From sequence record MW650886.1: a stretch of 64,000 nt of DNA; one strand, given 5' to 3'. The stretch comes from Escherichia phage vB_EcoM-ZQ1. Of the stretch, positions 2,760-63,835 are shown piece after piece (position 1 is the first letter of the stretch; the number at the start of each line of letters is the position of its first letter). Position numbers and translations under genes: made by a program. Below the pieces are notes generated by a model, which saw nothing but the letters and a program-made list of their open reading frames with translations, ran no database searches and was not told the DNA's origin.

Positions 2760-3065
2760 TTAGTCTTTGTCGGCAGACTTGCCAAAGAAGAATTCGAAAC
2801 CGTCATGGACAGCAACGACTTCCTGACCTTGGGAGATACCGTGAGTCTGGTCTGGGGTCAGCTTCACCTTGATGGTGTTGCCATCGGTTAACTCCAGGTT
2901 GTAGACATCCGCCTGATTGTCAGGAGTGATCTGGGTCACGGTAGCGCCGGAACACCACTGAGTGCCATCAGCTTGTTTGGTGATGGATACGGTCTTACCC
3001 TGGACACCAGCATGGGTCTGAGGTTTAGCGGCTTGTTCTTTAAAATATTCGATAAACGGTTTCAT
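2760..3065 (-). CDS. hypothetical late protein (101 aa)
   Basis: ORF preceded by canonical T4 late promoter TATAAATA. Confidence 0.5.
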   Translation of the reverse strand: MKPFIEYFKEQAAKPQTHAGVQGKTVSITKQADGTQWCSGATVTQITPDNQADVYNLELTDGNTIKVKLTPDQTHGISQGQEVVAVHDGFEFFFGKSADKD

Positions 3066-3089: not shown

Positions 3090-3097
3090 TATTTATA
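3090..3097 (-). promoter_or_regulatory. T4-type late promoter TATAAATA
   Basis: exact TATAAATA on minus strand ~25 bp upstream of ATG 3065. Confidence 0.55.
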
Positions 3098-6412: not shown

Positions 6413-6487
6413 TTTATATCTCCTGATTGAATTAATGGCGGTTTCTTCTAATTAGCGAAACCAAAAGGGAGCGTCAGCCCCCTTATC

Positions 6488-6871: not shown

Positions 6872-6900
6872 AGTATAGGAAAGGATATTGAAGAAGTAAA
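6872..6900 (-). promoter_or_regulatory. T4-type early promoter (-35 TTTACT, -10 TATACT)
   Basis: TTTACT - 16 bp - TATACT on minus strand; same cassette as at 39977 and 50705. Confidence 0.5.
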
Positions 6901-6929: not shown

Positions 6930-7568
6930 TTACGGCGTCGGATTCACAACCGGAATGTGGGATCGAATACCTGCGATGATGTCCTTCAGCCGAGGATTCC
7001 ATCCACCCACCAAACGGGGGAGAGCGATAGCGCCAGGCTGGACCAAAATGATGTCGCTGCCTGTGATATTGTGCTGAGGGAACTGAGCAAGGTACTGCTC
7101 CATGGCGACACCCTCATCAATCAGAACAGGACCGACATCAGATGACGCGTAGGTTGCACCCAGACCGTCAACGCCCCATGCCAAGATACCCCAGTCAGGG
7201 ATGTTGGCTTCAGATGTGATGGTGAATCCAAACACGGTGTTCAGCGAAGTAAAGGAATAGACATCGTGGGTGATGTCATACACCAGATACCCCTTGGCCA
7301 GCATATCGGCAAAGATCGCGTCCGTATCGCCAACAGCCGGAGTCGGCACAGTAAACAACAGCTCGCCATCAGGAGGAGCAGGATACGTGCCGAGGGCATA
7401 GAGGCACCATGCATCAATGCACTTCTTAATGAACGCCTCTGGCGCGACATAATCAGCAAGGCGAACCGTACCTGAGTACTCTGATACGATAATGCCTTCC
7501 TTCGCACCCTGTAGAGCAATGAAGACCAAGATATGTTCATATCCGGCCTGAGATGGAGTGATGTTCAT
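6930..7568 (-). CDS. hypothetical protein (212 aa)
   Basis: ORF; internal ATG 7568 overlaps stop of upstream gene. Confidence 0.5.
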   Translation of the reverse strand: MNITPSQAGYEHILVFIALQGAKEGIIVSEYSGTVRLADYVAPEAFIKKCIDAWCLYALGTYPAPPDGELLFTVPTPAVGDTDAIFADMLAKGYLVYDITHDVYSFTSLNTVFGFTITSEANIPDWGILAWGVDGLGATYASSDVGPVLIDEGVAMEQYLAQFPQHNITGSDIILVQPGAIALPRLVGGWNPRLKDIIAGIRSHIPVVNPTP

Positions 7569-8182
7569 TATCTTGTCCTCTTCAGTTTCTCTATTGTGTG
7601 CTTGTTCATGGCGATCACCTGAGGATCTACCTCGGAGATGGTCCGGCCTTCGAAAGACACACATTTCTGAAGATATTTAGCTTTCTTCACGACGTCGGCA
7701 GCATAAGCGTTCGATGCAGGATTACGGGCGAAGCCAGCATTGTAAGAGGAGAGGGATTTGCGGATATTCTGATTGTGATAGGTCAGCCAGAACTGCATCT
7801 CATCGAGGGCGGCTTGCGCGGCATATTCTTGGTCGGTCAGCAACTTTATGGCGACATTGGCATAGCACTTGCGATTCTTACAACCTTCGCGATCACCAAC
7901 TGTCTTCACCTTGTTCTGAAAGGCTCCCATGTTGGCCGCCTTGAGACCGTATCGCATTGACACTACATCTTCACCAGCGCGGCTCTCTCGCCAAGATATG
8001 GCGGCCAGAGTGTAGCCAAGATCTTGTGTCTTGCCTACGTGATAGGCGGTTGCCATCGTATTAAGTTGTTGCTCGGAGAAATTATAAACACATTGACTTG
8101 TATTTTGGGAAGCGTGCACATTCCCGCTGGCAATGGTAAAGGTCACGGACAAGGCCATGGCCTTCAACGTTGTCATCGTCAT
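7568..8182 (-). CDS. secreted protein, possible lytic transglycosylase-like
   Basis: N-terminal signal-peptide-like segment; weak ES...GAFQ motif. Confidence 0.4.
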   Translation of the reverse strand: MTMTTLKAMALSVTFTIASGNVHASQNTSQCVYNFSEQQLNTMATAYHVGKTQDLGYTLAAISWRESRAGEDVVSMRYGLKAANMGAFQNKVKTVGDREGCKNRKCYANVAIKLLTDQEYAAQAALDEMQFWLTYHNQNIRKSLSSYNAGFARNPASNAYAADVVKKAKYLQKCVSFEGRTISEVDPQVIAMNKHTIEKLKRTR

Positions 8183-8278
8183 GATGGCGTTCCTTATGTT
8201 TGTCGACTTGCAGCTCGATTGAGCCTCCTGACAGGGGTTAAAAGATAAAGGGCACGTGATATTTAGTGCCCTTCAGCC

Positions 8279-11382: not shown

Positions 11383-12490
11383 CCAGTTTGTTCAGGCGTT
11401 GTTGGGCAGCATTATAGAAGTGCTCTGCCAGTTTACAGACATTGTCGGGGCGCTGAATGTTGTTCCCTGCGCGGATATCCTTCTTCAGGACTTCCACCGC
11501 ATCGGTCGCCACCATCTCTTCGGTGACCTCAACCTTCTCGGCAGCAACAGTAATCGTCCGGTCGATGAAGTTGTAGTCGATACACTTGCAGCGCTTCATG
11601 GCATCACAGAACTTTTCATAATGCTTAGCATTGTCGCGGTTCTGTACAATAACCTTAACGATTTGCCCTTCAATACCCAAGCCTGTGTTCAACCATTCCG
11701 GGTCGATCCAATTACCTTCTTCATCAGAGGACAACTTGGTGTAATCATATTCCACATAGCGGAACAGCGTCTGGTGCTCGGCGTTCGGGATAAAGATCTC
11801 ACCACCACGCATGTCGTCTACATAGAAGCCACGGTTAGTGCCGTCTTTGTAGTCTTCCCAGTTCAGGTGATATGGAGTCCCAATATATTGAATGTTACCT
11901 TCCATCGAACGGGTATGGAAATGCCCCGTGTCGACCCTGGTAAACTTGGAAAGCAGAGCAACGTCGATCTGACCGTGATCACAAGTAGAAGACTGGTACA
12001 TTTTGAACCCCGCCAGCTCCAGATGCGCAAAACAGTACTCGGCGTCTGTATCTTGTATCGCTTTAATAGACGCATCATAGTTCTCCTTGTTGATCCAAGG
12101 TAGCAGTAGAGTCTTGACACCCTCGATCATCACTTCGGTCGGTTCGCTGTAATAGCAGTACACATCCGGGTCGAGTTCGTTCAGGTAGGATGGCCAGTTG
12201 ATGCGGTTGGACTCTTCCAGGGTGATGTCATGGTTGCCCACGATGCCATTCCACTTGATACCAGCCGCTTTCAATGCAGGGGTGAGTTCATCCTTCAGCC
12301 AGTCTTTGTCACGACCGTACATGAATTTGCGGACATCAAACGTATCACCGAACTGCCAGACCTCTTTGATATCAGAGTCGGCAAGTTCAGGAATGAAATA
12401 ATTGATGAGATAGTTCTTGATGAAGTCGCGAACGTATCGAGAACCATTACGGCTCCCGATATGCAGATCACCAATTTTAGCAATCGCCAT
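11375..12490 (-). CDS. 47: recombination nuclease subunit, gp47 / SbcD-Mre11-like
   Basis: calcineurin-like phosphoesterase motifs (GDLH, GNHD); overlaps gp46 gene. Confidence 0.8.
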   Translation of the reverse strand: MAIAKIGDLHIGSRNGSRYVRDFIKNYLINYFIPELADSDIKEVWQFGDTFDVRKFMYGRDKDWLKDELTPALKAAGIKWNGIVGNHDITLEESNRINWPSYLNELDPDVYCYYSEPTEVMIEGVKTLLLPWINKENYDASIKAIQDTDAEYCFAHLELAGFKMYQSSTCDHGQIDVALLSKFTRVDTGHFHTRSMEGNIQYIGTPYHLNWEDYKDGTNRGFYVDDMRGGEIFIPNAEHQTLFRYVEYDYTKLSSDEEGNWIDPEWLNTGLGIEGQIVKVIVQNRDNAKHYEKFCDAMKRCKCIDYNFIDRTITVAAEKVEVTEEMVATDAVEVLKKDIRAGNNIQRPDNVCKLAEHFYNAAQQRLNKLDA

Positions 12491-13218
12491 TATTCTGTTT
12501 CTCCTTCGGTTTCGTCTAGGCCGAATTGGGTATTGCCGAAGTCCTGATCTAAATTTTCTTCGGCCTGCGCTGGTGTCGTATTCTTAGCCTGCGCCATGTA
12601 TTGAAGTATACCTTTCGCAATCTTTTTATTCGATTCTGCGAGACGAGCTGCCTCCACCTTCTCTCGTTCCTTCTGCCTTTGAGCGTCCTTTTTGTTCTCA
12701 AAGTTGCCGATACGTTCACGGAAGTCCATGCCAATTCCTGTAGCATCAACAAAGATCTCTTGTTGGAAGTCGGGGTCATCTGCCAGGCCTGCGAACCCAC
12801 CCGCCTCTTCAAATGAGCGCAATTTAATGTACGTGTGCTCTTCTTCGATGTTCAGTTTACGAGCAAATGAGCGATCAGCACACATGGTCACCCAAGAAAA
12901 GAAGTTGATCTTCCCTTTCTTACCGATGTGGTCGACGTCAAAGGTGTGGAGGTAACGCAGGATGTTGACGATTGCTTCAGAGACCATGTCTTCACGGAAG
13001 GGATAATCGCGATAGTTGTAGCGGGTACTCATCTTGGTGATGATGCGCTGGACCTGCAGAGCAACATAGTTGGGGATCTTTGGAAGCCTGGTGCCCTCAG
13101 CAAGTGCTTTCTTGCGGGCGGGGATCCAATCACGAAGGATACTAATGACACGCTCGTTGTCTTCGTCCGTGAAATATTTGACGACATTCTCCCCTCTGTC
13201 CACGAAGTTCATTCCCAT
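12490..13218 (-). CDS. 55: late-transcription sigma factor, gp55-like
   Basis: region-2-like segment (ILRDW ... YLHTFD) matching T4 gp55 pattern. Confidence 0.65.
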   Translation of the reverse strand: MGMNFVDRGENVVKYFTDEDNERVISILRDWIPARKKALAEGTRLPKIPNYVALQVQRIITKMSTRYNYRDYPFREDMVSEAIVNILRYLHTFDVDHIGKKGKINFFSWVTMCADRSFARKLNIEEEHTYIKLRSFEEAGGFAGLADDPDFQQEIFVDATGIGMDFRERIGNFENKKDAQRQKEREKVEAARLAESNKKIAKGILQYMAQAKNTTPAQAEENLDQDFGNTQFGLDETEGETE

Positions 13219-13758: not shown

Positions 13759-13766
13759 ATATAAAT
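13759..13766 (+). promoter_or_regulatory. T4-type late promoter TATAAATA
   Basis: exact TATAAATA on plus strand ~37 bp upstream of ATG 13803. Confidence 0.5.
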
Positions 13767-13802
13767 ATCCCAAACTGGTTTTATAGAAAGAGGAATGAAA
13801 CT

Positions 13803-14570
13803 ATGGCACCCCGCGCATATCGTTTCAGTCTCACCGCCCCGCAGATTGAGCAATTGCTCCTCTCTATCTATGATGCTATCAAGTCAGAAGATATCATCTA
13901 TGATTATGCTGCAGGTGGGACTGCTGGACAAGTCGCAGCAGCGTCTGCTGTCAAGAACATGTGGTTGAAGCTCAACGAGATGGTGACAGGCCAAGGTCTC
14001 AAAGATGCCATCAACGATGCAGAAGACAGCAACGTGTTCACCGACTATTATAAGTCTTTACTGGATCGCGAAGGCTGGAAATTTATTGGATCGCCAGCAG
14101 ATGAACTTCAGCGAGGCGACATCGATACCTCGAACTTCAAAGGTGGTGAGGTCATTCTACTTCAGAAGAACGCTTCGGGCAACCCAGAATTCCAATACTG
14201 GAAGCGAACCCCTGTTGCTGGGGGTGATCCTACCTTTGCATGGGCTTCGGTCTATGAAGGGAACTCCAATGATTCCAGCATAGAGATTCCCGTGGTTGGC
14301 ACCAGCGTACTCAAGGACATCCCCAAGGCACTCTTCCATATGATCGAGTTCAGAGTACATGTCTACGATGAGACACTGGGTCATTGGCAAGACACCGACG
14401 GGAAGGTAGGGTATCGTGGCGAGGATCTGATCTACAGTGTCTACAACCATATTCAGACCAAACCTCTCGCCACCATTGACTTCAGCCAAGATACGGACAA
14501 TATGACGGTTTCTGTGACGTCGTTGGAACCGAATGTCAAGTGCCGTCTGTCCTTCGTTGCGGGTTACTAA
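13803..14570 (+). CDS. hypothetical late protein (255 aa)
   Basis: plus-strand ORF from internal ATG with AGAGGAA RBS and upstream TATAAATA. Confidence 0.5.
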   Translation: MAPRAYRFSLTAPQIEQLLLSIYDAIKSEDIIYDYAAGGTAGQVAAASAVKNMWLKLNEMVTGQGLKDAINDAEDSNVFTDYYKSLLDREGWKFIGSPADELQRGDIDTSNFKGGEVILLQKNASGNPEFQYWKRTPVAGGDPTFAWASVYEGNSNDSSIEIPVVGTSVLKDIPKALFHMIEFRVHVYDETLGHWQDTDGKVGYRGEDLIYSVYNHIQTKPLATIDFSQDTDNMTVSVTSLEPNVKCRLSFVAGY

Positions 14571-28178: not shown

Positions 28179-28292
28179 GATGTAATCTTCCTGTTTCAGT
28201 TCAAATGTGCGCCCCGTTTGCCAGGGCGCTTCGTTTAAGTGAGGTCAATATACGCTGGATTGAGTTATTGAAGAACGAAGTAAAGGGAATCT

Positions 28293-30964: not shown

Positions 30965-31420
30965 CTATTTAGCCTTGCGCGGTTTCGCTTTGGCGTTCAG
31001 CTCAGTGCGTCTCATCTTCTCGCGTATCTCGGCCAGGACTTCCTTCGGCAAGAAACGGACGTACTCCGATGCCTTCTCCATGCTGATGTAGAAGTACTCT
31101 GAGAGTAACTTCACGTCAGGATCAATCGGACCTTTCTTAGACCATTTGTCGTAGCGTTTCCGAGCCGGAATGGTGTAAAAGGCATATGACCATTGCATCC
31201 ATGGAGTGATAGCATGTAGCTTATTCATCTGTTGCGCAGCCACTAGAGTGTCTTTGCTCTGAGCTAAACCACGCCGCGTCATAAACGGGTCGAATCCTTT
31301 CAACACTTCTGGGTCATCAGACCGCAAAAGGTTTTCTTTGCTGCTGTTCAGAGCAGCCAGGTAATCGAACAATCCAAGGGCGGCCATAATATCACTTCCA
31401 CTTGATGTTGAGCATGACAT
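30965..31420 (-). CDS. 62: clamp-loader small subunit, gp62-like
   Basis: IPARKRYDKWSK resembles T4 gp62 VPRGKRYGKWAK; synteny 45-44-62-regA; alternative start at 31387. Confidence 0.6.
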   Translation of the reverse strand: MSCSTSSGSDIMAALGLFDYLAALNSSKENLLRSDDPEVLKGFDPFMTRRGLAQSKDTLVAAQQMNKLHAITPWMQWSYAFYTIPARKRYDKWSKKGPIDPDVKLLSEYFYISMEKASEYVRFLPKEVLAEIREKMRRTELNAKAKPRKAK

Positions 31421-32461: not shown

Positions 32462-33130
32462 TTACTCAATCTGTGCGCCGACGAAGTAATTGATCGTCGC
32501 GTCGGATGATTGGAAGTTCACCATCTGTAGATCAGCACAGGCACGCAAAGTGTAGTTGCCTTCGATCATTTTCAGGTTGGCAACATCCAGCGGCATTACG
32601 AAGTCCGGCAGCGCGGTTTCGCCCAGCTCAACAGTGTAGTTGTTGGAGTTGTCCAGGGTAGTAGTGGTTGCAACCAGGCGAGTTTTGCCACCCTGAGCAA
32701 CCAGGCGCACAGTCTTATGTCCGAGGGTAGAACAGGCGCGGGTCAGTTCTTTCATCTTCTCTGGAGTGATGATCGCTTCAAAGTCGACAGACGGCAGTTC
32801 AATAGTATCAGCCGGGACAACCGTGAGTTCTTTAGCAGAACGCCAGAATTGCAGCTGAGAACTTTCGCCCTTCAACAGGATGTAGTCCTGATGGAATTCG
32901 GCTTTGGCACCTTTAAAGGAAGGTAGGCGCTGGATAGCCAGAAGTTTGGTCAGGTCCAGAATCGGGAACTCAAACGGGAAGTCTTCTTCGATCTGCGCCA
33001 CGGCGATCACAGTAGAAGAATCATTAATACTGCGCAGCATCTTGCCCGGTGTCAGAACGATAGATGGGTTGATGGTCTCAAAGTTGGCCAGCAACTGAAG
33101 TGTACGTTCGGAGAGAGTGATCTCTTGCAT
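32462..33130 (-). CDS. 45: sliding clamp, gp45-like
   Basis: size 222 aa, N-terminal LQLLANFETINPSIVL resembles T4 gp45, synteny. Confidence 0.7.
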   Translation of the reverse strand: MQEITLSERTLQLLANFETINPSIVLTPGKMLRSINDSSTVIAVAQIEEDFPFEFPILDLTKLLAIQRLPSFKGAKAEFHQDYILLKGESSQLQFWRSAKELTVVPADTIELPSVDFEAIITPEKMKELTRACSTLGHKTVRLVAQGGKTRLVATTTTLDNSNNYTVELGETALPDFVMPLDVANLKMIEGNYTLRACADLQMVNFQSSDATINYFVGAQIE

Positions 33131-35368: not shown

Positions 35369-35393
35369 ACAAAATCTCCCAAGGATTATGGGG

Positions 35394-35400
35394 TATTTAG
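35394..35400 (-). promoter_or_regulatory. late-promoter-like motif CTAAATA
   Basis: CACTAAATACC ~25 bp upstream of ATG 35368. Confidence 0.4.
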
Positions 35401-38566: not shown

Positions 38567-38595
38567 AAATACCCCCATGGATGATGGGGGTATTT
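38567..38595 (-). terminator. stem-loop terminator overlapping late-promoter-like motif
   Basis: 11-bp perfect stem aaataccccca / tgggggtattt, 7-nt loop, U-rich tail; CTAAATA in 3' arm. Confidence 0.55.
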
Positions 38596-38600
38596 AGGGA

Positions 38601-39926: not shown

Positions 39927-39976
39927 GATATAGTTCCTTCATTTCAGAGTCAGTGTTGTGCTGCTTATGGAATGAA

Positions 39977-40009
39977 GTATACGGGGTTTATTGAAGAAGT
40001 AAACCCCGT
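39977..40009 (-). promoter_or_regulatory. T4-type early promoter within a 10-bp-stem hairpin (PeSL-like)
   Basis: TTTACT - 16 bp - TATACT; -35 lies in hairpin acggggttta / taaaccccgt. Confidence 0.5.
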
Positions 40010-41022: not shown

Positions 41023-42495
41023 TTAGTTCAAGACATATTTGATCAGTCCACAATTCCAAATCCTGACCAACCCGGCTTCGGTTGCTAACTGGCTTTCTGT
41101 TTTGCCTTCTACGTCATACCCCATGCGAGCAAATGAACCTTTTCTGAAACCGAATTTGTGCTCACGCATAAATGTGCCAGGCTTGTGATATTTGTAGTCT
41201 GGCTTCTGTACTTCCTCTTCTACGAATCCGTGGGATAGGTAAATGTTGGACAACCTGCTTACAACACACCTATCCCCAAAGGAATAGATTTTGGTGTCGG
41301 CAAATTTTCTTCTGAAGTGTGAAAGAAGTTTACTGAATGCCCCGTGGCAATCATTAGAGGCAAATCTGACTAATTCCAGGCCATCTTTCCTTTTAGTGAA
41401 TAGCATCACGGCTTGTATGACCTCACTCTTGTCAATTAACGACAAATGGTGGGTAGAAGAAACGGAACCTTGTATGTGGTGGTTGTCTAAAAACTCCCTC
41501 AAGCCGCTTATATTCCCCCAAACGACTTTGTGTTGGCGAGCATATGACGCAGGCGTTTTAATGCCAAGTTTAGCTTTCAGAAGAGATTTTACCACTTCCT
41601 GTTTCTCAACCCATTCATCTTCCCAGATGTGGACCAACTGGATACCCTGAGATTCACATATTTCAGTCTTTTCCAGGTGATAATGTTTCTCTTTAAAAAC
41701 TTCTGAATGCCAGTACAGGCCATTAAATTCAATCGCCAATTTGTGTTCAGGGCAATAGATATCCAGTTGTTTACCGGATAATATACTGTAATCAGAAACA
41801 GTGTTTACAACTCCCATTGAGGTGAGAAACTCGGATATTTCCTTTTCATAAGAAGATTTCTTGTTCCTGATAGAACCATTGCTGAACAACGCACGTTTTA
41901 GTATGTTCGAGTTTTTCATAGGGTTGTCAACACCATAACGTTCTTGTAACGTTGCCAACGCCTTCTCCCTCACACCAGGTAATTGTAGTGTGGAGCAGCT
42001 TCCGTATTTGGATATATTCGAAGTCTCTATGGCTTTCCGACCAATACCACCTTTACACATAGAAACCTGATAACATTCTTCAGAACAATATGTTCTGTAA
42101 TCTTTATTATTGATGTAAAAGTTGGTTTCCTTGGAACACACCGGGCATATTTTCACGGTTCTATTGTACATCCAAGCTGTGACTTTACAAGCCAAATCTT
42201 GTAGGGTGTTGTGGGCATTGGCGAACACTAAAAGGTCTACATTGATGTGCTTCATAAGCAGTTCAGATTTGCATTTTTGGATATCCAATTTGTTGTTCTT
42301 GGTAAACATATATTTGTAGAAAAATTGGCGATATGATTCCTCGTCAGACAATTCATTCACTGCTTCAAGGAAACCTTCCGGGAGGTTCTTTAGGGTGTTC
42401 GATGCGAAGGTCTTGCAAGCATCTGAACAAAATTTCTTATCTTTCCTGGATGCTTTGAACTGTTCATGGCAGACACTACAGATTACCTGATACAT
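41023..42495 (-). CDS. free-standing homing-endonuclease-like protein (Zn ribbons, YGV..PMK repeats, Vsr/DUF559-like nuclease domain)
   Basis: Cys clusters, repeated KYGVDNPMK-type modules, AIEFNGLYWH ... HIWEDEW C-terminal domain; paralog of 48475..50274. Confidence 0.6.
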   Translation of the reverse strand: MYQVICSVCHEQFKASRKDKKFCSDACKTFASNTLKNLPEGFLEAVNELSDEESYRQFFYKYMFTKNNKLDIQKCKSELLMKHINVDLLVFANAHNTLQDLACKVTAWMYNRTVKICPVCSKETNFYINNKDYRTYCSEECYQVSMCKGGIGRKAIETSNISKYGSCSTLQLPGVREKALATLQERYGVDNPMKNSNILKRALFSNGSIRNKKSSYEKEISEFLTSMGVVNTVSDYSILSGKQLDIYCPEHKLAIEFNGLYWHSEVFKEKHYHLEKTEICESQGIQLVHIWEDEWVEKQEVVKSLLKAKLGIKTPASYARQHKVVWGNISGLREFLDNHHIQGSVSSTHHLSLIDKSEVIQAVMLFTKRKDGLELVRFASNDCHGAFSKLLSHFRRKFADTKIYSFGDRCVVSRLSNIYLSHGFVEEEVQKPDYKYHKPGTFMREHKFGFRKGSFARMGYDVEGKTESQLATEAGLVRIWNCGLIKYVLN

Positions 42496-42556
42496 AATTA
42501 TTCTCCTCCATATGGTATCTAGTATAACCTGTTCGATAATATGAACAAATAAAAAC

Positions 42557-43932: not shown

Positions 43933-44014
43933 TCCTTACATTGATATTCAGTTAAGTTGAAATTAATTAGTAGTTCAAAATCAAGCCCCCTTTCGAGGGC
44001 TGTGGCTGCTAAAA

Positions 44015-44866: not shown

Positions 44867-44893
44867 GATTGTTTCCTTCTGAACGATTTTCAG

Positions 44894-44900
44894 TATTTAG
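44894..44900 (-). promoter_or_regulatory. late-promoter-like motif CTAAATA
   Basis: CACTAAATACTG ~26 bp upstream of scaffold ATG. Confidence 0.4.
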
Positions 44901-46082: not shown

Positions 46083-46113
46083 ATCCTCTAAATGTTTTCT
46101 ATACTTAGTCGAA

Positions 46114-47808: not shown

Positions 47809-47842
47809 GATTAAGTCCTCAACATTTTCTTGTAATTAGTGA

Positions 47843-48408: not shown

Positions 48409-48430
48409 GGTCGTTCTCCTCTGAATAGTG

Positions 48431-48441
48431 TAAATATTTAG
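48431..48441. promoter_or_regulatory. palindromic late-promoter-like element TAAATATTTA (bidirectional)
   Basis: reads CTAAATA on minus strand toward tube gene and GTAAATA on plus strand toward the endonuclease gene. Confidence 0.4.
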
Positions 48442-48474
48442 TTTTGAAATAAATGGGGGTTAAAATACTCCAAA

Positions 48475-50274
48475 GTGAGGATATTTATTATGCCATTCCC
48501 CGATAAAAATTGTTCATGCTGCCACAAACCGTTCACCCCAACCAGGAAGGCTGCGTTGTATTGTAGTGACGAATGTAAATCATTCATGCTGGGAACGATG
48601 AAACGCAATCCGAGTTTGTTGGATAACATCCCGACGACCGAAACCGAATGCCGCTCTTGGGTTGATAGTAAACTCAGGAAGAAAGATGGTTCGTTGAACT
48701 ACAAACTTATCTCTCATCCCCTACTCACGGCCCATACTGGGGTTGATGTTGTTGGATACGTGGTGTCACACAACGACCTATTAGAAGAACCACAAGCGAT
48801 AACTGCTTGGCTGTACGATATTCCGAAGTCGCAGTGTGTCACTTGCGGTGCTGACGTTGGCTTAGAAATGGAAGCCCAACCACCCAGATACAAAAAGTTT
48901 TGTTCCGAAGAATGTCAACGAGAATCGATGAAGGCGGGAGGCTCAGAACGGACCAACCTAGAAAGCGCCATATCAGAGAAATATGGCGTTTCTAGCACAT
49001 TCCAGCTGGAAGAAGTAAAACAAAAGTCACGGGAAACTGTCCTTAAGAAATATGGGGTCGACCACCCTATGAAGTCTGATGTTATAAAGGACAGAGTGGC
49101 TGCTTCCGTCATGGAACGCTATGGCGTATCACACGTCATGAAAATGCCAGAAGTGAGGGAAAGGGTGATTGAGACTTGGAGGAAGATCTATGGTGTGGAT
49201 CATCCAATGTTCCTCAATTCCATTATAGAAAAGAGAAAGAAAACATGCGTCTTAAAATATGGGGTTGATTATCCGTTGAAGGTAAAGGCTATATGGGATA
49301 GAAGCCAGGTCAATACCAGGATCATTTCAAAAGAAAAATACGGCGTACCTCACTATTTCTCTTCTGAAGAATATAGGAACTCTTTCACGTACCCCAGCAG
49401 CCAAAGCCAAACACAGCCAGAAATAGAAATATGTTCATATCTGGAGTCATTGGGCGTTATATGCGAATCTGGTAATTTCTCCATCCTCAGAGGTAAAATG
49501 TTCGACGGAAGGGTGACCACACGCCAGATAGACATATACTGCCCAGAACATAAGTTGGCAATAGAATTTAACGGCTTGTACTGGCATACAGAGAAACATC
49601 GATACAAAGACTACCATCTTGAAAAGACCATGTACTGTGAAGCCCAGGGTGTTCAATTAATCCATATCTGGGAAGATGAGTGGCGTGACAAACGGGAAGT
49701 GGTTAAATCACTCCTTAAAGCAAAATTGGGGATAGGGAAACCATTGTCATACGCTCGCCAACATACCATTTTAGAAGGCTCCTATAGGACGTCCAAGGAC
49801 TTTCTCGACCGATTCCATATACAAGGTGGTGTGGTGGCGACAGATTATATACACCTTGTAGACAAAACTGGGAATATCCAGGCGGTGATGTTGTTTACCA
49901 AACGAGTGCATGGTATTGAATTGGTGAGATTTGCTTCTAACAATTGTCATGGCGCATTCTCACGCTTGCTGAAATATTATATCGCTCGACATCGGGGTGA
50001 GACAGTATATTCTTTTGGTGATCGTTGTGTTGTCAGTCGTCTGAAAAATGTTTACCTGAATAACGGATTTGTTGAAAAGGAAATCCTTCCCCCTGATTAC
50101 AAATATGTGACTCCGGACTATGGCTCACGTATACACAAATTCAATTTCAGGAAAGAGAAATTCCTTAAACTTGGATACGATGTAGAAGGTAAAACAGAGG
50201 ATATGCTGGCGATAGAAGCCGGGTTGGGGCGTATCTGGGGGTGTGGTCTTATCCGGTATGAACTGGAAAACTAA
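48475..50274 (+). CDS. free-standing homing-endonuclease-like protein (paralog of 41023..42495)
   Basis: plus-strand gene inside minus-strand tail module; same Zn-ribbon, YGV..PMK repeat and Vsr/DUF559-like domain. Confidence 0.65.
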   Translation: MRIFIMPFPDKNCSCCHKPFTPTRKAALYCSDECKSFMLGTMKRNPSLLDNIPTTETECRSWVDSKLRKKDGSLNYKLISHPLLTAHTGVDVVGYVVSHNDLLEEPQAITAWLYDIPKSQCVTCGADVGLEMEAQPPRYKKFCSEECQRESMKAGGSERTNLESAISEKYGVSSTFQLEEVKQKSRETVLKKYGVDHPMKSDVIKDRVAASVMERYGVSHVMKMPEVRERVIETWRKIYGVDHPMFLNSIIEKRKKTCVLKYGVDYPLKVKAIWDRSQVNTRIISKEKYGVPHYFSSEEYRNSFTYPSSQSQTQPEIEICSYLESLGVICESGNFSILRGKMFDGRVTTRQIDIYCPEHKLAIEFNGLYWHTEKHRYKDYHLEKTMYCEAQGVQLIHIWEDEWRDKREVVKSLLKAKLGIGKPLSYARQHTILEGSYRTSKDFLDRFHIQGGVVATDYIHLVDKTGNIQAVMLFTKRVHGIELVRFASNNCHGAFSRLLKYYIARHRGETVYSFGDRCVVSRLKNVYLNNGFVEKEILPPDYKYVTPDYGSRIHKFNFRKEKFLKLGYDVEGKTEDMLAIEAGLGRIWGCGLIRYELEN

Positions 50275-50276
50275 AA

Positions 50277-50292
50277 CCCCGCCTCAGCGGGG
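50277..50292. terminator. bidirectional stem-loop terminator
   Basis: ccccgcctcagcgggg hairpin between convergent genes. Confidence 0.5.
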
Positions 50293-50299
50293 TAAACTA

Positions 50300-50656
50300 C
50301 TATTTGCGAATGCTAACCTGAGCATAATACACATAATAATCACCGTGGGCACGGAAGCTGGTGAGGTGGAAGGTGACGAGGTGGCTCCCGAAAGCTACAA
50401 CTTTGGTATCTGGGGAGCATAAATCATTAGCTAGTTCACCCAGAACCTTACCACAAAACTCCCCAACAATAGCGTTAAATCTGTCAATGTGTGGACTGGT
50501 CACCGTCATTGGACCAACATCTGCACAGTAGATCCCTTTTATCATCTTTCCCTGGCTGTCGCGTACTGGCTTTGCAGGCTGGTAAGGATTGATGCGGCGT
50601 TTCAGGTTACAGAGGCCGATTTCTTTCAGGATAGCGTTAATTTCGGTCTTGGTCAT
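50300..50656 (-). CDS. hypothetical early protein (118 aa)
   Basis: conserved leader ...GGAACTATATC-ATG and early promoter. Confidence 0.5.
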   Translation of the reverse strand: MTKTEINAILKEIGLCNLKRRINPYQPAKPVRDSQGKMIKGIYCADVGPMTVTSPHIDRFNAIVGEFCGKVLGELANDLCSPDTKVVAFGSHLVTFHLTSFRAHGDYYVYYAQVSIRK

Positions 50657-50704
50657 GATATAGTTCCTTCGTTTCAAGTTGGTGTCGTACTGCTTATGTT
50701 TAGA

Positions 50705-50733
50705 ATTATACGTGAGTTATTGAAGAAGTAAAG
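50705..50733 (-). promoter_or_regulatory. T4-type early promoter (-35 TTTACT, -10 TATAAT)
   Basis: TTTACT - 16 bp - TATAAT. Confidence 0.5.
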
Positions 50734-50767
50734 TAATTCAATAAAATAATCTGGGAAAAATTTAAAA

Positions 50768-50783
50768 CCCCGCCGAAGCGGGG
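50768..50783 (-). terminator. stem-loop terminator (identical to 42557..42572)
   Basis: ccccgccgaagcgggg hairpin. Confidence 0.55.
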
Positions 50784-50788
50784 TCTTG

Positions 50789-51091
50789 TTACACTTTGCT
50801 GTATTTCTTAAACAATTTACCGAGTTCACCTGGGGCTTCTCGAGTTCCAGCAGCTTTGCTAACAACCTGTTTATCTTTCTTCAGGTCGAATACTTTGATC
50901 TCTTTGCCATTATATGTATATTCAAAATCATCAATGGTTATGCGGAAGAAATCTCCAAATACTCCATTTTCGATATCACCCTTTTTGAGCCTTACATCTT
51001 GGTCTTCCAACCATTCAATCACGGAGTCTTTAACTTTCTGAAGGTCACCTTTTAGGCCTGCTTCTGCTAAAAATTGAGAAAAACTTTTCAT
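50789..51091 (-). CDS. hypothetical protein (100 aa)
   Basis: ORF with GAGG RBS directly after sheath terminator. Confidence 0.45.
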   Translation of the reverse strand: MKSFSQFLAEAGLKGDLQKVKDSVIEWLEDQDVRLKKGDIENGVFGDFFRITIDDFEYTYNGKEIKVFDLKKDKQVVSKAAGTREAPGELGKLFKKYSKV

Positions 51092-51102
51092 AACAATACC
51101 TC

Positions 51103-51120
51103 AATGTGCCCTCCGAAGAG
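51103..51120 (-). terminator. stem-loop terminator
   Basis: tgccctc-cgaa-gagggca hairpin downstream of sheath gene. Confidence 0.45.
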
Positions 51121-51133
51121 GGCATGGAGTAAA

Positions 51134-53071: not shown

Positions 53072-53078
53072 TATTTAG
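53072..53078 (-). promoter_or_regulatory. late-promoter-like motif CTAAATA
   Basis: CACTAAATATC ~38 bp upstream of sheath ATG. Confidence 0.4.
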
Positions 53079-57345: not shown

Positions 57346-57352
57346 TATTTAG
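57346..57352 (-). promoter_or_regulatory. late-promoter-like motif CTAAATA
   Basis: GACTAAATACC ~24 bp upstream of ATG 57322. Confidence 0.4.
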
Positions 57353-57381: not shown

Positions 57382-57594
57382 ATGCAAGTGGAAGACATCA
57401 AAGAAGTTCGCAGCGGTCGTCGCGTCCGAATCATCTGTGTGGACGCCAAGATTGGAGGTGGTGATTACGACATCGTCGGTCTGGTGAAAGAAGTAGATGG
57501 CACAGACTTCATTGAGTGGTGGAACTCCAAAGACAAGACAGAAGACGGTCTGCTGCGTGGTAGTGGCAATGGAAACCTGGATTTGAAAATCTAA
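57382..57594 (+). CDS. hypothetical protein (70 aa)
   Basis: plus-strand ORF with GAGGAA RBS, followed by hairpin terminator. Confidence 0.4.
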   Translation: MQVEDIKEVRSGRRVRIICVDAKIGGGDYDIVGLVKEVDGTDFIEWWNSKDKTEDGLLRGSGNGNLDLKI

Positions 57595-61900: not shown

Positions 61901-63259
61901 CCTGTGGACGATATGAGGTTAGAAAGGTAGTATGCAGCATCACGCTGACCGCCGTCCAGAGTGAAGTTAGAGGTGACGTCAGCGCCATTTGCGTTCTTCA
62001 CGCTGATCAGCTTGTAACCATCATGGTTCCCAAGTTGTGCGCTGGCCGCCGCAGTAAACGTCACAGTCTCGGTGGCTTCGGTAACAGTCTTGGTCTTGAT
62101 CGTCGCTGTGGTGCGGACCATCAATGCCAACAGGTTGATAGACTGGTTGGCGTACCCCGCGCCCAGGGAAATCTGCAGTGCTGAACCAACCGGAGTACCA
62201 GCCAGGGACAGTCCCGAAGAGATATCAAACTGAGCTGCAGTGCCATCTGCCTTCGCTGCGGAGTACAGTGAAAACTCAGGGCTGAAGCTGTAACCCAGAG
62301 GAGCGGAGATTGAGCCTGCACCAGCGGCGTTCAACGTGATCTTGTTTGACCGCAGGACGGTGTAGTTGATGTCGATGGTGCCTGTAGGTGCTAGGGTCTT
62401 CACACCAAATACAGGCAGAGGGAAGATCAGGTCAATTGCTGAACTCTGGCTGAACTGATTGGACTCCAGTTCGCAGGAGAACATCGTTGTACCGCTTTCT
62501 TCATAAGCGACTTTGGTCACCGTACCCATGTCCCCAGTCACAACCAGGTCGCGCATATACAGACGGAATTCAGTACCGGAGCGCTCTGCCGAAATCAGCA
62601 GGGCGGTGGCCTGCACATCGCTGGATGCGTTCAGGAACTTGTAGCGGATTGTGCGGGAGACAACCGGAACCCCTTTGGAGTTCTTGGACACCAGATAGTT
62701 GCCAGTCGAAACAGCCACAGGGTTGTTGTTCAGGATATCAGTGTCACGGGCTTTGTCAATTATGACCAGCTCTTCGCCGAGGTTTTCGATACGACGACCA
62801 CGAACGTAGGATATCCCTGGCTTCATAACCGCCACGAATTTGCTTTCATCACCACCTTCAGCCGGAGTGTAAACGCCGCCGTTGTTGTTCTGTTTCAGAT
62901 GTTCGCGCAGGTCGATCTGGTGAGTAGAGACGTTGTAGATGTTCACGCAGGTCGATCTGGTGAGTAGAGACGTTGTAATCCCCGTTGGTCTCATAAGTGC
63001 GCTGCGCCATACTGTCTTCGAGGATGTTGTAGGTGGACTGGGTCACCATGGACTGAATGCGACCGTCTTTCACCTTCGCCAGTTCAACGAAGTCGGCCAC
63101 TTCTTCATCATAACCGTAGCGAGACAACACGAGGTCGACGCGCAGGCGATGCGCACCAGGGGCTTTAGAGTTCGGAGTACCCTGAGCATTGGAGAACAGA
63201 CTTTCATCTTCTGCTTCGGTTCGTCGGAGTTGTAGGTCCTTGTATGGCGCCTGCTTCAT
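58984..63259 (-). pseudogene. large virion structural gene (tail fibre/baseplate-like, ~1411 aa if intact) split by a frameshifting 40-bp tandem duplication
   Basis: ORFs 62858..63259 and 58984..62994 overlap in different frames; both encode YNVSTHQIDLREHL across the duplicated 40-mer. Confidence 0.6.
62898..62977 (-). repeat. 40-bp tandem duplication, 1 mismatch
   Basis: gatgttcgcgcaggtcgatctggtgagtagagacgttgta followed by the same with g to a at position 8. Confidence 0.85.
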
Positions 63260-63329
63260 TTGCGGAAACCAGTACGCGCGTTGTTATCTAGGTGGGCTGT
63301 CATCGTCGTCGGTGTGGTATCGGCTGTGC

Positions 63330-63794
63330 TTACTTTAATAGCAAGTGCAGCATCCACAACTTCATGTCCAACAGTCCAGCTTCGAAACCGTCTGAACTAC
63401 CACTCTCAGTCATCTCTAAGATGGCATACATTGTATCCGGCTCAGCTGGATAACGTTCCAAAGACAGGACGCGTGCTTTCGCATTGTTGTCCTTGCCCAG
63501 AACATAGAGTTCGGAGATACCTTCCAGATCAGTGAACTCACTACCACCAGCCAGAGTGAACTTCATGGACACAGCAGTATTGGTGATCGTCAGGCCGCCG
63601 GGGATAACCATTGAACCGTCTTTGAACAGATGGTTGCCAAGTTTCTCCAGTTGATCCTGGAAGATGGTCTGCATCTGGTTCAGTTCACGCGTCTGAACTT
63701 TGATAGGTGCCGGACGGAATAGAATGCGCGAAAAACGCTTCTCTGGATTCCAGTCATCCCAATATGGGCGGCGGTTGAGGTTCATTTCTTGCAT
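63330..63794 (-). CDS. hypothetical virion-module protein (154 aa)
   Basis: internal ATG 63794 with GGAG RBS and upstream CTAAATA motif. Confidence 0.45.
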   Translation of the reverse strand: MQEMNLNRRPYWDDWNPEKRFSRILFRPAPIKVQTRELNQMQTIFQDQLEKLGNHLFKDGSMVIPGGLTITNTAVSMKFTLAGGSEFTDLEGISELYVLGKDNNAKARVLSLERYPAEPDTMYAILEMTESGSSDGFEAGLLDMKLWMLHLLLK

Positions 63795-63828: not shown

Positions 63829-63835
63829 TATTTAG
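63829..63835 (-). promoter_or_regulatory. late-promoter-like motif CTAAATA
   Basis: TACTAAATATC ~35 bp upstream of ATG 63794. Confidence 0.4.

Follow-up and report, generated by a model that had tools for sequence, protein, structure and literature searches.

Positions 48431 to 48441 of the DNA analyzed here, a stretch of 64,000 nucleotides (nt) of Escherichia phage vB_EcoM-ZQ1 (MW650886.1; the window), lie between the tail tube gene gp19 on the minus strand and a divergent homing endonuclease gene on the plus strand. They include a copy of CTAAATA, a motif that a sequence-only reading of the window had taken for a late promoter, extended here into a palindrome. The surroundings of these positions are 99.0% identical to Escherichia phage A221, 98.6% identical to PC3 and PH4, and ∼88% identical to Dickeya phage LIMEstone1. 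The remaining window is 96 to 98% identical to AV101, YX22, A221, and LHE287, with the Agtrevirus AV101 itself at 96 to 97%. On these similarities, the window comes from an Ackermannviridae phage of the Aglimvirinae/Agtrevirus type. Its G+C content is ∼49%, and nearly all of its genes are on the minus strand.

CTAAATA occurs 11 times in the window (at 7674, 8260, 30966, 35394, 38591, 44894, 48435, 53072, 57306, 57346, and 63829), always on the minus (gene) strand (P = 0.001 for 11 of 11 on one strand). Shuffling the sequence 100 times, with both strands counted, gave an expectation of 3.74 ± 2.08 copies, and none of the 100 shuffles reached 11; the sequence-only reading had proposed such a comparison as a check, and the outcome favors it. 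Placement is biased as well. On the rough gene map built in this analysis, which underlies the position statistics, the 5' base of 8 of the 11 copies falls 24 to 55 nt upstream of a same-strand start codon, a 32-nt zone that makes up 1.9% of strand positions (binomial P = 2.7e-12). Nine copies have a gene start downstream: gene 7568-8182, a regA-like gene, a UvsW-like helicase gene, a gene for a DUF7217 virion protein, gp22, gp19, gp18, gp14, and the N-terminal part of a VriC-like gene. The other two (7674 and 57306) are intragenic. The seven upstream sites listed earlier are all real, but the gap from the end of the motif to the ATG is 23 to 42 nt and not 24 to 38 base pairs (bp), and the list lacked the copies at 8260-8266 and 30966-30972. 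Thus, the proposal of a motif family standing before genes is borne out by enrichment over shuffles and by bias in strand and position (Table 1).

The T4 late octamer, TATAAATA, occurs twice, at 3090-3097 (minus) and 13760-13767 (plus), 31 and 42 nt before genes. Both copies had been reported, the first correctly and the second at 13759. We dropped the count of this octamer as an argument, since 17 of 100 shuffles also reach two copies; its position alone is significant. The same holds for CTAAKTA (CTAATTA or CTAAGTA), which was found 5 times versus 6.8 expected: all five copies are noncoding, and four of the five sit 31 to 47 nt before a start. CTAATTA does precede the portal (47833-47839), capsid (43964-43970), and 1096-amino-acid (1096-aa; 6449-6455) genes, as had been described. 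On both strands, the coding sequence, which makes up 91% of the window, is free of CTAATTA and CTAAGTA, whereas the window as a whole would be expected to hold ∼6.8 copies. This absence is a hint of selection acting against spurious late promoters within genes.

TABLE 1 Predicted late-promoter motifs and associated features of the window
Feature	Position	Strand	Remarks
CTAAATA, tail tube gp19 (ATG 48408)	48435-48441	-	Predicted +1 A 48429; 21-nt leader, Shine-Dalgarno (SD) sequence GAGGAG
GTAAATA, plus reading of TAAATATTTA, candidate late promoter of homing endonuclease (ATG 48490)	48430-48436	+	LIMEstone1 annotates plus strand too
Homing endonuclease, F-LimVIII type (phrog_3339), only plus-strand gene in block	48490-50274	+	
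Tube/endonuclease intergenic segment	48409-48489		Near-identical in three genera
CTAAATAccccc, predicted late promoter of DUF7217 virion protein gene (ATG 38562)	38591-38597	-	Predicted +1 A 38585
12-bp hairpin plus U-tract, terminator of upstream small-gene unit	38567-38595	-	5' arm 38584-38595 has AAATA; 3' arm has SD GGGGGU
CTAAATA, scaffold gene gp22	44894-44900	-	Same position in 7 genomes
CTAAATA, tail sheath gene gp18	53072-53078	-	
CTAAATA, neck gene gp14	57346-57352	-	
CTAAATA, N-terminal part of large VriC-like virion protein gene	63829-63835	-	
CTAAATAcccc, UvsW-like helicase gene	35394-35400	-	
CTAAATA in 3' end of gp62-like gene	30966-30972	-	37 nt before regA-like gene
CTAAATA, 84 nt before gene 7568-8182	8260-8266	-	TAAATA in terminator-like hairpin loop (stem 8266-8275/8246-8255)
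TTAAATA in terminator hairpin loop	2706-2712	-	38 nt before gene 2321-2674
T4-type TATAAATA abutting terminator stem, before gene 2760-3065	3090-3097	-	
T4-type TATAAATA before gene 13803-14570	13760-13767	+	LIMEstone1 orthologue ORF093 is a virion protein (mass spectrometry)
CTAATTA, portal gp20	47833-47839	-	CTAAATA at same position in phiMAM1, Bue1
CTAATTA, major capsid gp23	43964-43970	-	CTAAGTA in LIMEstone1, CBA120, Menlow; CTAAATA in phiMAM1, Bue1
CTAAGTA, 56-aa gene heading prohead core/protease block	46102-46108	-	CTAAATA in CBA120, Menlow, phiMAM1, Bue1
CTAATTA, 1096-aa gene	6449-6455	-	
Late sigma factor, gp55 homologue	12490-13218	-	phrog_234, E = 1e-51
Sliding clamp, gp45 homologue	32462-33130	-	phrog_223, E = 1e-64; Pfam gp45-slide_C
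Second promoter-like family	50705-50732, 39976-40003, ∼6873-6900, ∼28250-28285, ∼690-722	- (all)	

We compared the window with the homologous 20-kb structural block of six other phages: LIMEstone1 (Limestonevirus), fGh-Ecl02 (a close relative of the window), CBA120 (Kuttervirus), Menlow (Taipeivirus), phiMAM1 (Miltonvirus), and Bue1 (Nezavisimistyvirus). With Agtrevirus, the orthologous sites span six genera. Across all fetched loci of these phages and the window, the gene strand holds 53 copies of CTAAATA and the opposite strand holds one. Before gp22, it occupies the identical position in all seven genomes compared, and before gp18 it is at the same position in all genomes with a usable annotated start. 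The gp14 site is CTAAATA in every compared genome except phiMAM1 (CTAAGTA). At the DUF7217 site, CTAAATA is present in the window and LIMEstone1, and the C at -12, counted from the predicted transcription start, is replaced by T in CBA120 (TTAAATA) and by A in phiMAM1 (ATAAATA). At the portal, capsid, and 56-aa gene sites, phiMAM1 and Bue1 carry CTAAATA at the positions where the window carries variants, which shows that CTAATTA and CTAAGTA there descend from CTAAATA sites rather than resembling them by chance.

The sequence around orthologous sites differs between genomes throughout. Averaged over eight orthologous groups, column conservation is 0.92 to 1.00 at -13 to -6, save for 0.79 at -8, and is ∼0.54 to 0.84 upstream of the motif (-37 to -14) and 0.61 to 0.90 downstream. 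The base-composition profile of 35 exact sites from five genera shows A at -13 in 27 sites, a pyrimidine at -5 in 28 and at -4 in 28, and A in 27 at the predicted +1, six positions past the motif. No -35 element is conserved, and no base is favored at -24 to -15 in the 35 sites. The core TAAATA is invariant apart from -8 and is preceded by C at -12; the refined consensus, aCTAA[A/t/g]TA with pyrimidines and an A start, improves on the published 11-mer (see below).

The window encodes homologues of two T4 late transcription proteins, the sigma factor gp55 and the sliding clamp gp45. The gp55 homologue is also similar to cyanophage gp55 in tblastn. When this protein alone was searched directly against PDB, nothing relevant was found, and a family profile was needed: with 19 members, it had T4 gp55 (7D7C chain F) as its sole PDB match (E = 5e-7; residues 10 to 160). 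The homologue is ∼17% identical to T4 gp55, in which the pocket residues for the flipped -12, -9, and -8 bases have been described (PMC7892883). Among these residues, N13, R57, F86, and T99 are kept, and L54 is replaced by I, H95 by F, and Y97 by W; the F and W are invariant in Ackermannviridae gp55 proteins. The homologue also has a C-terminal extension of 60 to 80 residues that the T4, Aeh1, and cyanophage gp55 proteins do not have.

Aeromonas phage Aeh1 offers a close comparison for the motif itself. Its late promoter is CTAAATA from -12 (Nolan et al., 2006; PMC1524935), as cited in a review of T4 late transcription, and is thus identical to the window motif in heptamer and register. Aeh1 differs from the window in belonging to Straboviridae and in having a gp55 that keeps H95 and Y97, as in T4. 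In T4 gp55, Y97 stacks on the -12 adenine (PMC7892883). We considered the residue change in the sigma factor as the cause of C at -12 and rejected it: Aeh1 combines CTAAATA with H95 and Y97, so the H95F and Y97W substitutions do not explain the specificity at -12.

We consider it very probable that the CTAAATA-type sites are T4-type, gp55-dependent late promoters of an Ackermannviridae phage. A gp55-dependent late regulon with a relaxed consensus, as put forward in the sequence-only reading, is supported by the bias in strand and position, the six-genus conservation, the A at +1, and the presence of gp55 and gp45 homologues, and it agrees with earlier annotation and literature. In the mechanism that we propose, the gp55-like sigma would take the place of host sigma-70 on the Escherichia coli RNA polymerase core and would read a lone -10-like element on the nontemplate strand, without a -35. 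This element would be (a)CTAA[A/t/g]TA at -13 to -6, and transcription would start, in most cases at an A, ∼6 nt downstream. By analogy with T4, the gp45-like clamp probably boosts activity via a gp33 coactivator encoded outside the window; such a boost would couple virion-gene expression to DNA replication. The downstream genes encode virion proteins (tube, sheath, portal, capsid, scaffold, and neck), and their LIMEstone1 orthologues have been confirmed by mass spectrometry.

The geometry is that of the T4 late promoter (PMC1524935), which has TATAAATA at -13 to -6 and is served by gp55, gp33, and gp45. Shared features are the lone -10-like element with a TAAATA core and no -35, the AT-rich downstream segment, the pyrimidines at -5 and -4, the predicted start ∼6 nt downstream, the gp55 and gp45 homologues, and the occurrence of late promoters on either strand. 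The window differs in that C replaces A at -12 and A replaces T at -13, in that T or G is accepted at -8 at the capsid and portal sites, and in that its sigma factor is as divergent as described above, with F and W in place of H95 and Y97.

These predicted promoters have been seen before. The LIMEstone1 paper (Adriaenssens et al., 2012; PMC3296691) predicted 33 late promoters by similarity to T4. The LIMEstone1 record (HE600015) marks the TAAATA hexamer as "putative late promoter" at sites syntenic with those of the window: the motif is at syntenic positions before gp22, gp18, gp14, UvsW, ORF129, ORF157, and, on the plus strand, ORF093. The two phages show no essential difference in this respect. 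"CTAAATAcCcc" is one of two regulatory motifs of ViI-like phages (PMC7283392). In the window, the 11-mer CTAAATACCCC is found at 35390-35400 and 38587-38597. The "CTAAATAcCcc" motif reportedly goes back to the 2012 proposal of the genus "Viunalikevirus." Given the LIMEstone1 annotation, the ViI-like motif, and Aeh1, the CTAAATA late promoter of Ackermannviridae is already annotated and published, and our finding is a correct rediscovery. What is added here, namely, the derived variants, a promoter in a hairpin that combines a terminator and a ribosome-binding site, and a promoter on an endonuclease cassette, exemplify mechanisms known from T4. With the motif, late (virion) transcription units can be reliably delimited in genomes of Ackermannviridae, which are widely used in biocontrol and therapy; it has little importance beyond annotation. 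The hairpin and cassette arrangements would deserve no more than brief mention in a genome paper, unless the bidirectional firing considered below is true.

Several points weigh against a gp55-dependent regulon. Our literature search found no transcript 5' ends or timing data for any Ackermannviridae phage, and the CBA120 paper of 2011 described the late recognition sequence as then unidentified. gp33 was not found within the window; it has been reported in the literature for AG3, CBA120, and ViI. The -8 variants precede the capsid and portal genes, and in T4 the -8 adenine inserts into a gp55 pocket (PMC7892883), suggesting that the sigma factor reads -8 differently here or that those promoters are weak. 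Some CTAAATA copies stand before genes that are not obviously late (the regA-like gene and gene 7568-8182), and two are intragenic. Finally, Ackermannviridae DNA carries hypermodified thymidines (PMC5889632), which may bear on recognition.

The palindrome reported at 48431-48441 is present. TAAATATTTA, at 48431-48440, occurs once in the window, where 0.02 copies are expected. Read on the minus strand, it gives aaaCTAAATAtttac, a standard site that precedes the tube ATG by 26 nt and for which the predicted +1 (48429) is an A. In the plus reading, the first base of GTAAATA is 61 nt before the endonuclease ATG, and transcription is predicted to start at a T and to yield a 48-nt leader. Judged from sequence, the chances that the plus strand fires toward the endonuclease gene are about even.

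The palindrome may equally well work one way, as the tube promoter only. GTAAATA would then be an accident of AT-rich self-complementary sequence, and the endonuclease gene, like T4 segD, would have poor expression or depend on transcription from elsewhere. The T at the plus-strand start and the 48-nt leader are in line with this, and G at -12 is found in none of the other predicted sites, the orthologous-site variants being only C, T, and A. After CTAAATA, a palindrome needs merely TTTA as the next four bases; on the other hand, the palindrome is unique in the window and far above expectation. The endonuclease gene is the sole plus-strand gene in ∼9 kb, and no sigma-70-like site precedes it (none was found on the plus strand in 48409-48489), which counts against the one-way reading. 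The LIMEstone1 annotators independently called late promoters on both strands between the tube gene and F-LimVIII (HE600015). LIMEstone1 also has a second palindromic site, TAAATATATTTA, at the divergent pair gp14/ORF152, which again argues for two-way use; against it, the divergent pair of gp14 and the plus-strand open reading frame at 57382 has no plus-strand late motif in the window, fGh-Ecl02, Menlow, CBA120, or Bue1. T4 can be cited on either side: late promoters are common for its endonuclease genes, but segD, its one antisense homing endonuclease gene, is without an identifiable promoter (PMC3014915, PMC2988022). The perfect conservation of the segment is accounted for by recent transfer of a whole cassette and thus cannot tell one-way from two-way function.

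Two further ideas about this junction were discarded. A palindromic late motif is not a general solution for divergent pairs, as the pair formed by gp14 and the plus-strand reading frame lacks one in five of six genomes. RNA structure masking either ribosome site in the tube/endonuclease intergenic region was not found beyond chance (z of ∼0.2 to 1.3). A separate minus-strand motif, AATAAATA at 48482-48489, corresponds to the frequent A(-13) form of the T4 late octamer. It precedes the tube ATG by 80 nt, shares bases with the endonuclease start codon, and may be due to chance in the AT-rich spacer of the ribosome site.

The tube/sheath junction (48409-51133) is a homing-endonuclease hot spot, for which at least three states are seen. 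The junction is empty in Bue1; a GIY-YIG endonuclease gene lies between tube and sheath, in their orientation, in CBA120, Menlow, fGh-Ecl02, and phiMAM1; and the window, maane, and LIMEstone1 have the antisense F-LimVIII-type gene. Where the GIY-YIG gene is present, the tube promoter (CTAATTAgaattgtg), with CTAATTA or, in phiMAM1, CTAAATA, lies within its 3' end, like the gene 32 promoters inside T4 segG. All three carriers of the F-LimVIII-type gene share the 82-nt segment 48409-48489 in near-identical form. In the Kuttervirus maane, the tube gene matches the window at 100% identity over its first 100 to 150 nt and at 80 to 85% beyond them, and its 3' part is 95 to 100% identical to CBA120. 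This pattern is the signature of co-conversion during endonuclease homing. Taken with the shared segment, it indicates that promoter, leader, and tube 5' end move with an endonuclease cassette of ∼2.4 to 2.7 kb that is exchanged between genera.

In the window, the copy at 48435-48441 is the sole tube promoter and would drive the tail tube gene, so that the cassette would supply its own tube leader and promoter; the palindromic extension may also give the antisense endonuclease gene a weak late promoter. LIMEstone1 differs in that the same segment, with a stray "CATGG" from a tube start, is 237 nt from the tube gene. The displaced segment adjoins the old sheath terminator and a GIY-YIG remnant (∼190 nt), and the tube gene keeps its own CTAATTA promoter. 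The cassette is thus seen in Agtrevirus (the window), in Kuttervirus maane, and, displaced, in Limestonevirus. We entertain only tentatively, as rather doubtful, the fuller proposal that the F-LimVIII-type cassette carries a truly bidirectional late promoter and, on homing, overwrites the tube promoter, leader, and first 100 to 150 nt of coding sequence of the recipient. If it is true, one 10-bp element feeds both an essential tube gene and a selfish endonuclease, and a phage that lost the cassette would be left without its tube promoter.

A second homing endonuclease gene of the same family (41023-42495) has CTAGATA at 42516-42522 (minus), 27 nt before its ATG. This heptamer is kept in LIMEstone1 F-LimVII, though the flanks differ. 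With its G at -9, it may represent a late-type site of low strength.

At the DUF7217 gene, the promoter motif is built into a hairpin. The transcribed strand reads CT-AAATACCCCCAT-CATCC-ATGGGGGTATTT-TCTT-ATG, and folding of the region gives a 12-bp stem (folding free energy, -18.3 kcal/mol; z = -3.8) followed by a U-rich run. A simple terminator scanner did not list this hairpin at 38567-38595; it was revealed by folding. The hairpin is kept with differing loops in LIMEstone1, CBA120, and phiMAM1, that is, in four phages including the window. The AAATA of the promoter lies in the 5' arm, and the SD sequence GGGGGU, which precedes the AUG by 8 nt, is part of the 3' arm. The sequence-only reading had recognized the overlap of motif and terminator hairpin but had assigned the motif to the 3' arm, which holds only in plus-strand coordinates; on the transcribed minus strand, it is the 5' arm. 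With T4 geometry, the predicted +1 falls on base 11 of the 12-base 5' arm, and late RNA starting at this second-last base could not form the hairpin. Transcripts arriving from upstream would stop at 38567-38595 or have their ribosome site masked, and late transcripts would begin inside the hairpin, without the 5' arm, and hence would read through and be translated.

Hairpins that mask a ribosome-binding site and carry a late promoter in their 5' strand are known from T4 gene e, I-TevI, and segB and from Aeh1 mobE (PMC3014915, PMC2988022). With its predicted start, the 38591 site has the same arrangement: as in gene e and I-TevI, the promoter is in the 5' arm, the start would be inside the hairpin, and the SD sequence is in the 3' arm (38567-38597). 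It differs from them in that the hairpin is also intrinsic terminator-like, with its U-tract, and the gene encodes a virion protein.

In related overlaps with terminators, the loop holds the motif at 8260-8266 and 2706-2712, and at 3090-3097 the motif abuts the stem. The gp22 leader (44868-44893, minus) and its orthologues have a small conserved hairpin, CTGAAaatcgTTCAG, directly after the predicted start, and the palindrome GGCTGAATTCAGCC lies just upstream of the gp22 promoter, overlapping the gp21 stop codon. The portal promoter is also preceded by a hairpin, GGGGGA...TCCCCC.

Two rival readings concern the motif as a whole. The motif could be the -10-like element of early or middle promoters used by the host sigma-70 holoenzyme, which we regard as very unlikely. 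TAAATA is similar to TATAAT, and some copies stand ahead of nonstructural genes (regA-like and UvsW-like), but the motif lacks a conserved -35, it is in front of nearly all virion gene blocks, and its invariant C/T-A-A at -12 to -9 fits gp55-type, not sigma-70, promoters. T4 uvsW is itself a late gene. Moreover, other genes are preceded by a distinct family of sigma-70-like sites, made up of a -35-like TTTACT and TATAAT or TATACT with a conserved spacer.

The sites of this second family are noncoding and consist of TTTACTTCTTCAATA(A/T), 8 to 9 nt, and TATAAT/TATACT, often followed by TTCATTCCATAAGCAG. They look like sigma-70-type early promoters with a conserved spacer and are probably the "TTCAAT[N14]TATAAT" motif published for these phages.

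That the motif acts not as a promoter but in RNA, as a processing, stability, or translation signal in 5' leaders, is hardly credible: it is strand-specific and near ribosome-binding sites, and several copies overlap hairpins, but its distance to the start codon ranges from 23 to 84 nt while its spacing to A(+1) is fixed, it is identical to a described promoter class, and it lies in a stem at 38591 and in a loop at 8260 and 2706, so there is no consistent RNA context.

One further observation concerns the gene behind the CTAAATA copy at 63829. The N-terminal part of the VriC-like gene (62933-63794, minus) is spread over three reading frames: residues 1 to 137, 215 to 310, and 296 onward of LIMEstone1 ORF157 align in frames -3, -1, and -2, respectively, and residues 138 to 214 are unmatched. 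The split could reflect frameshift errors, a pseudogene, or a real split gene.

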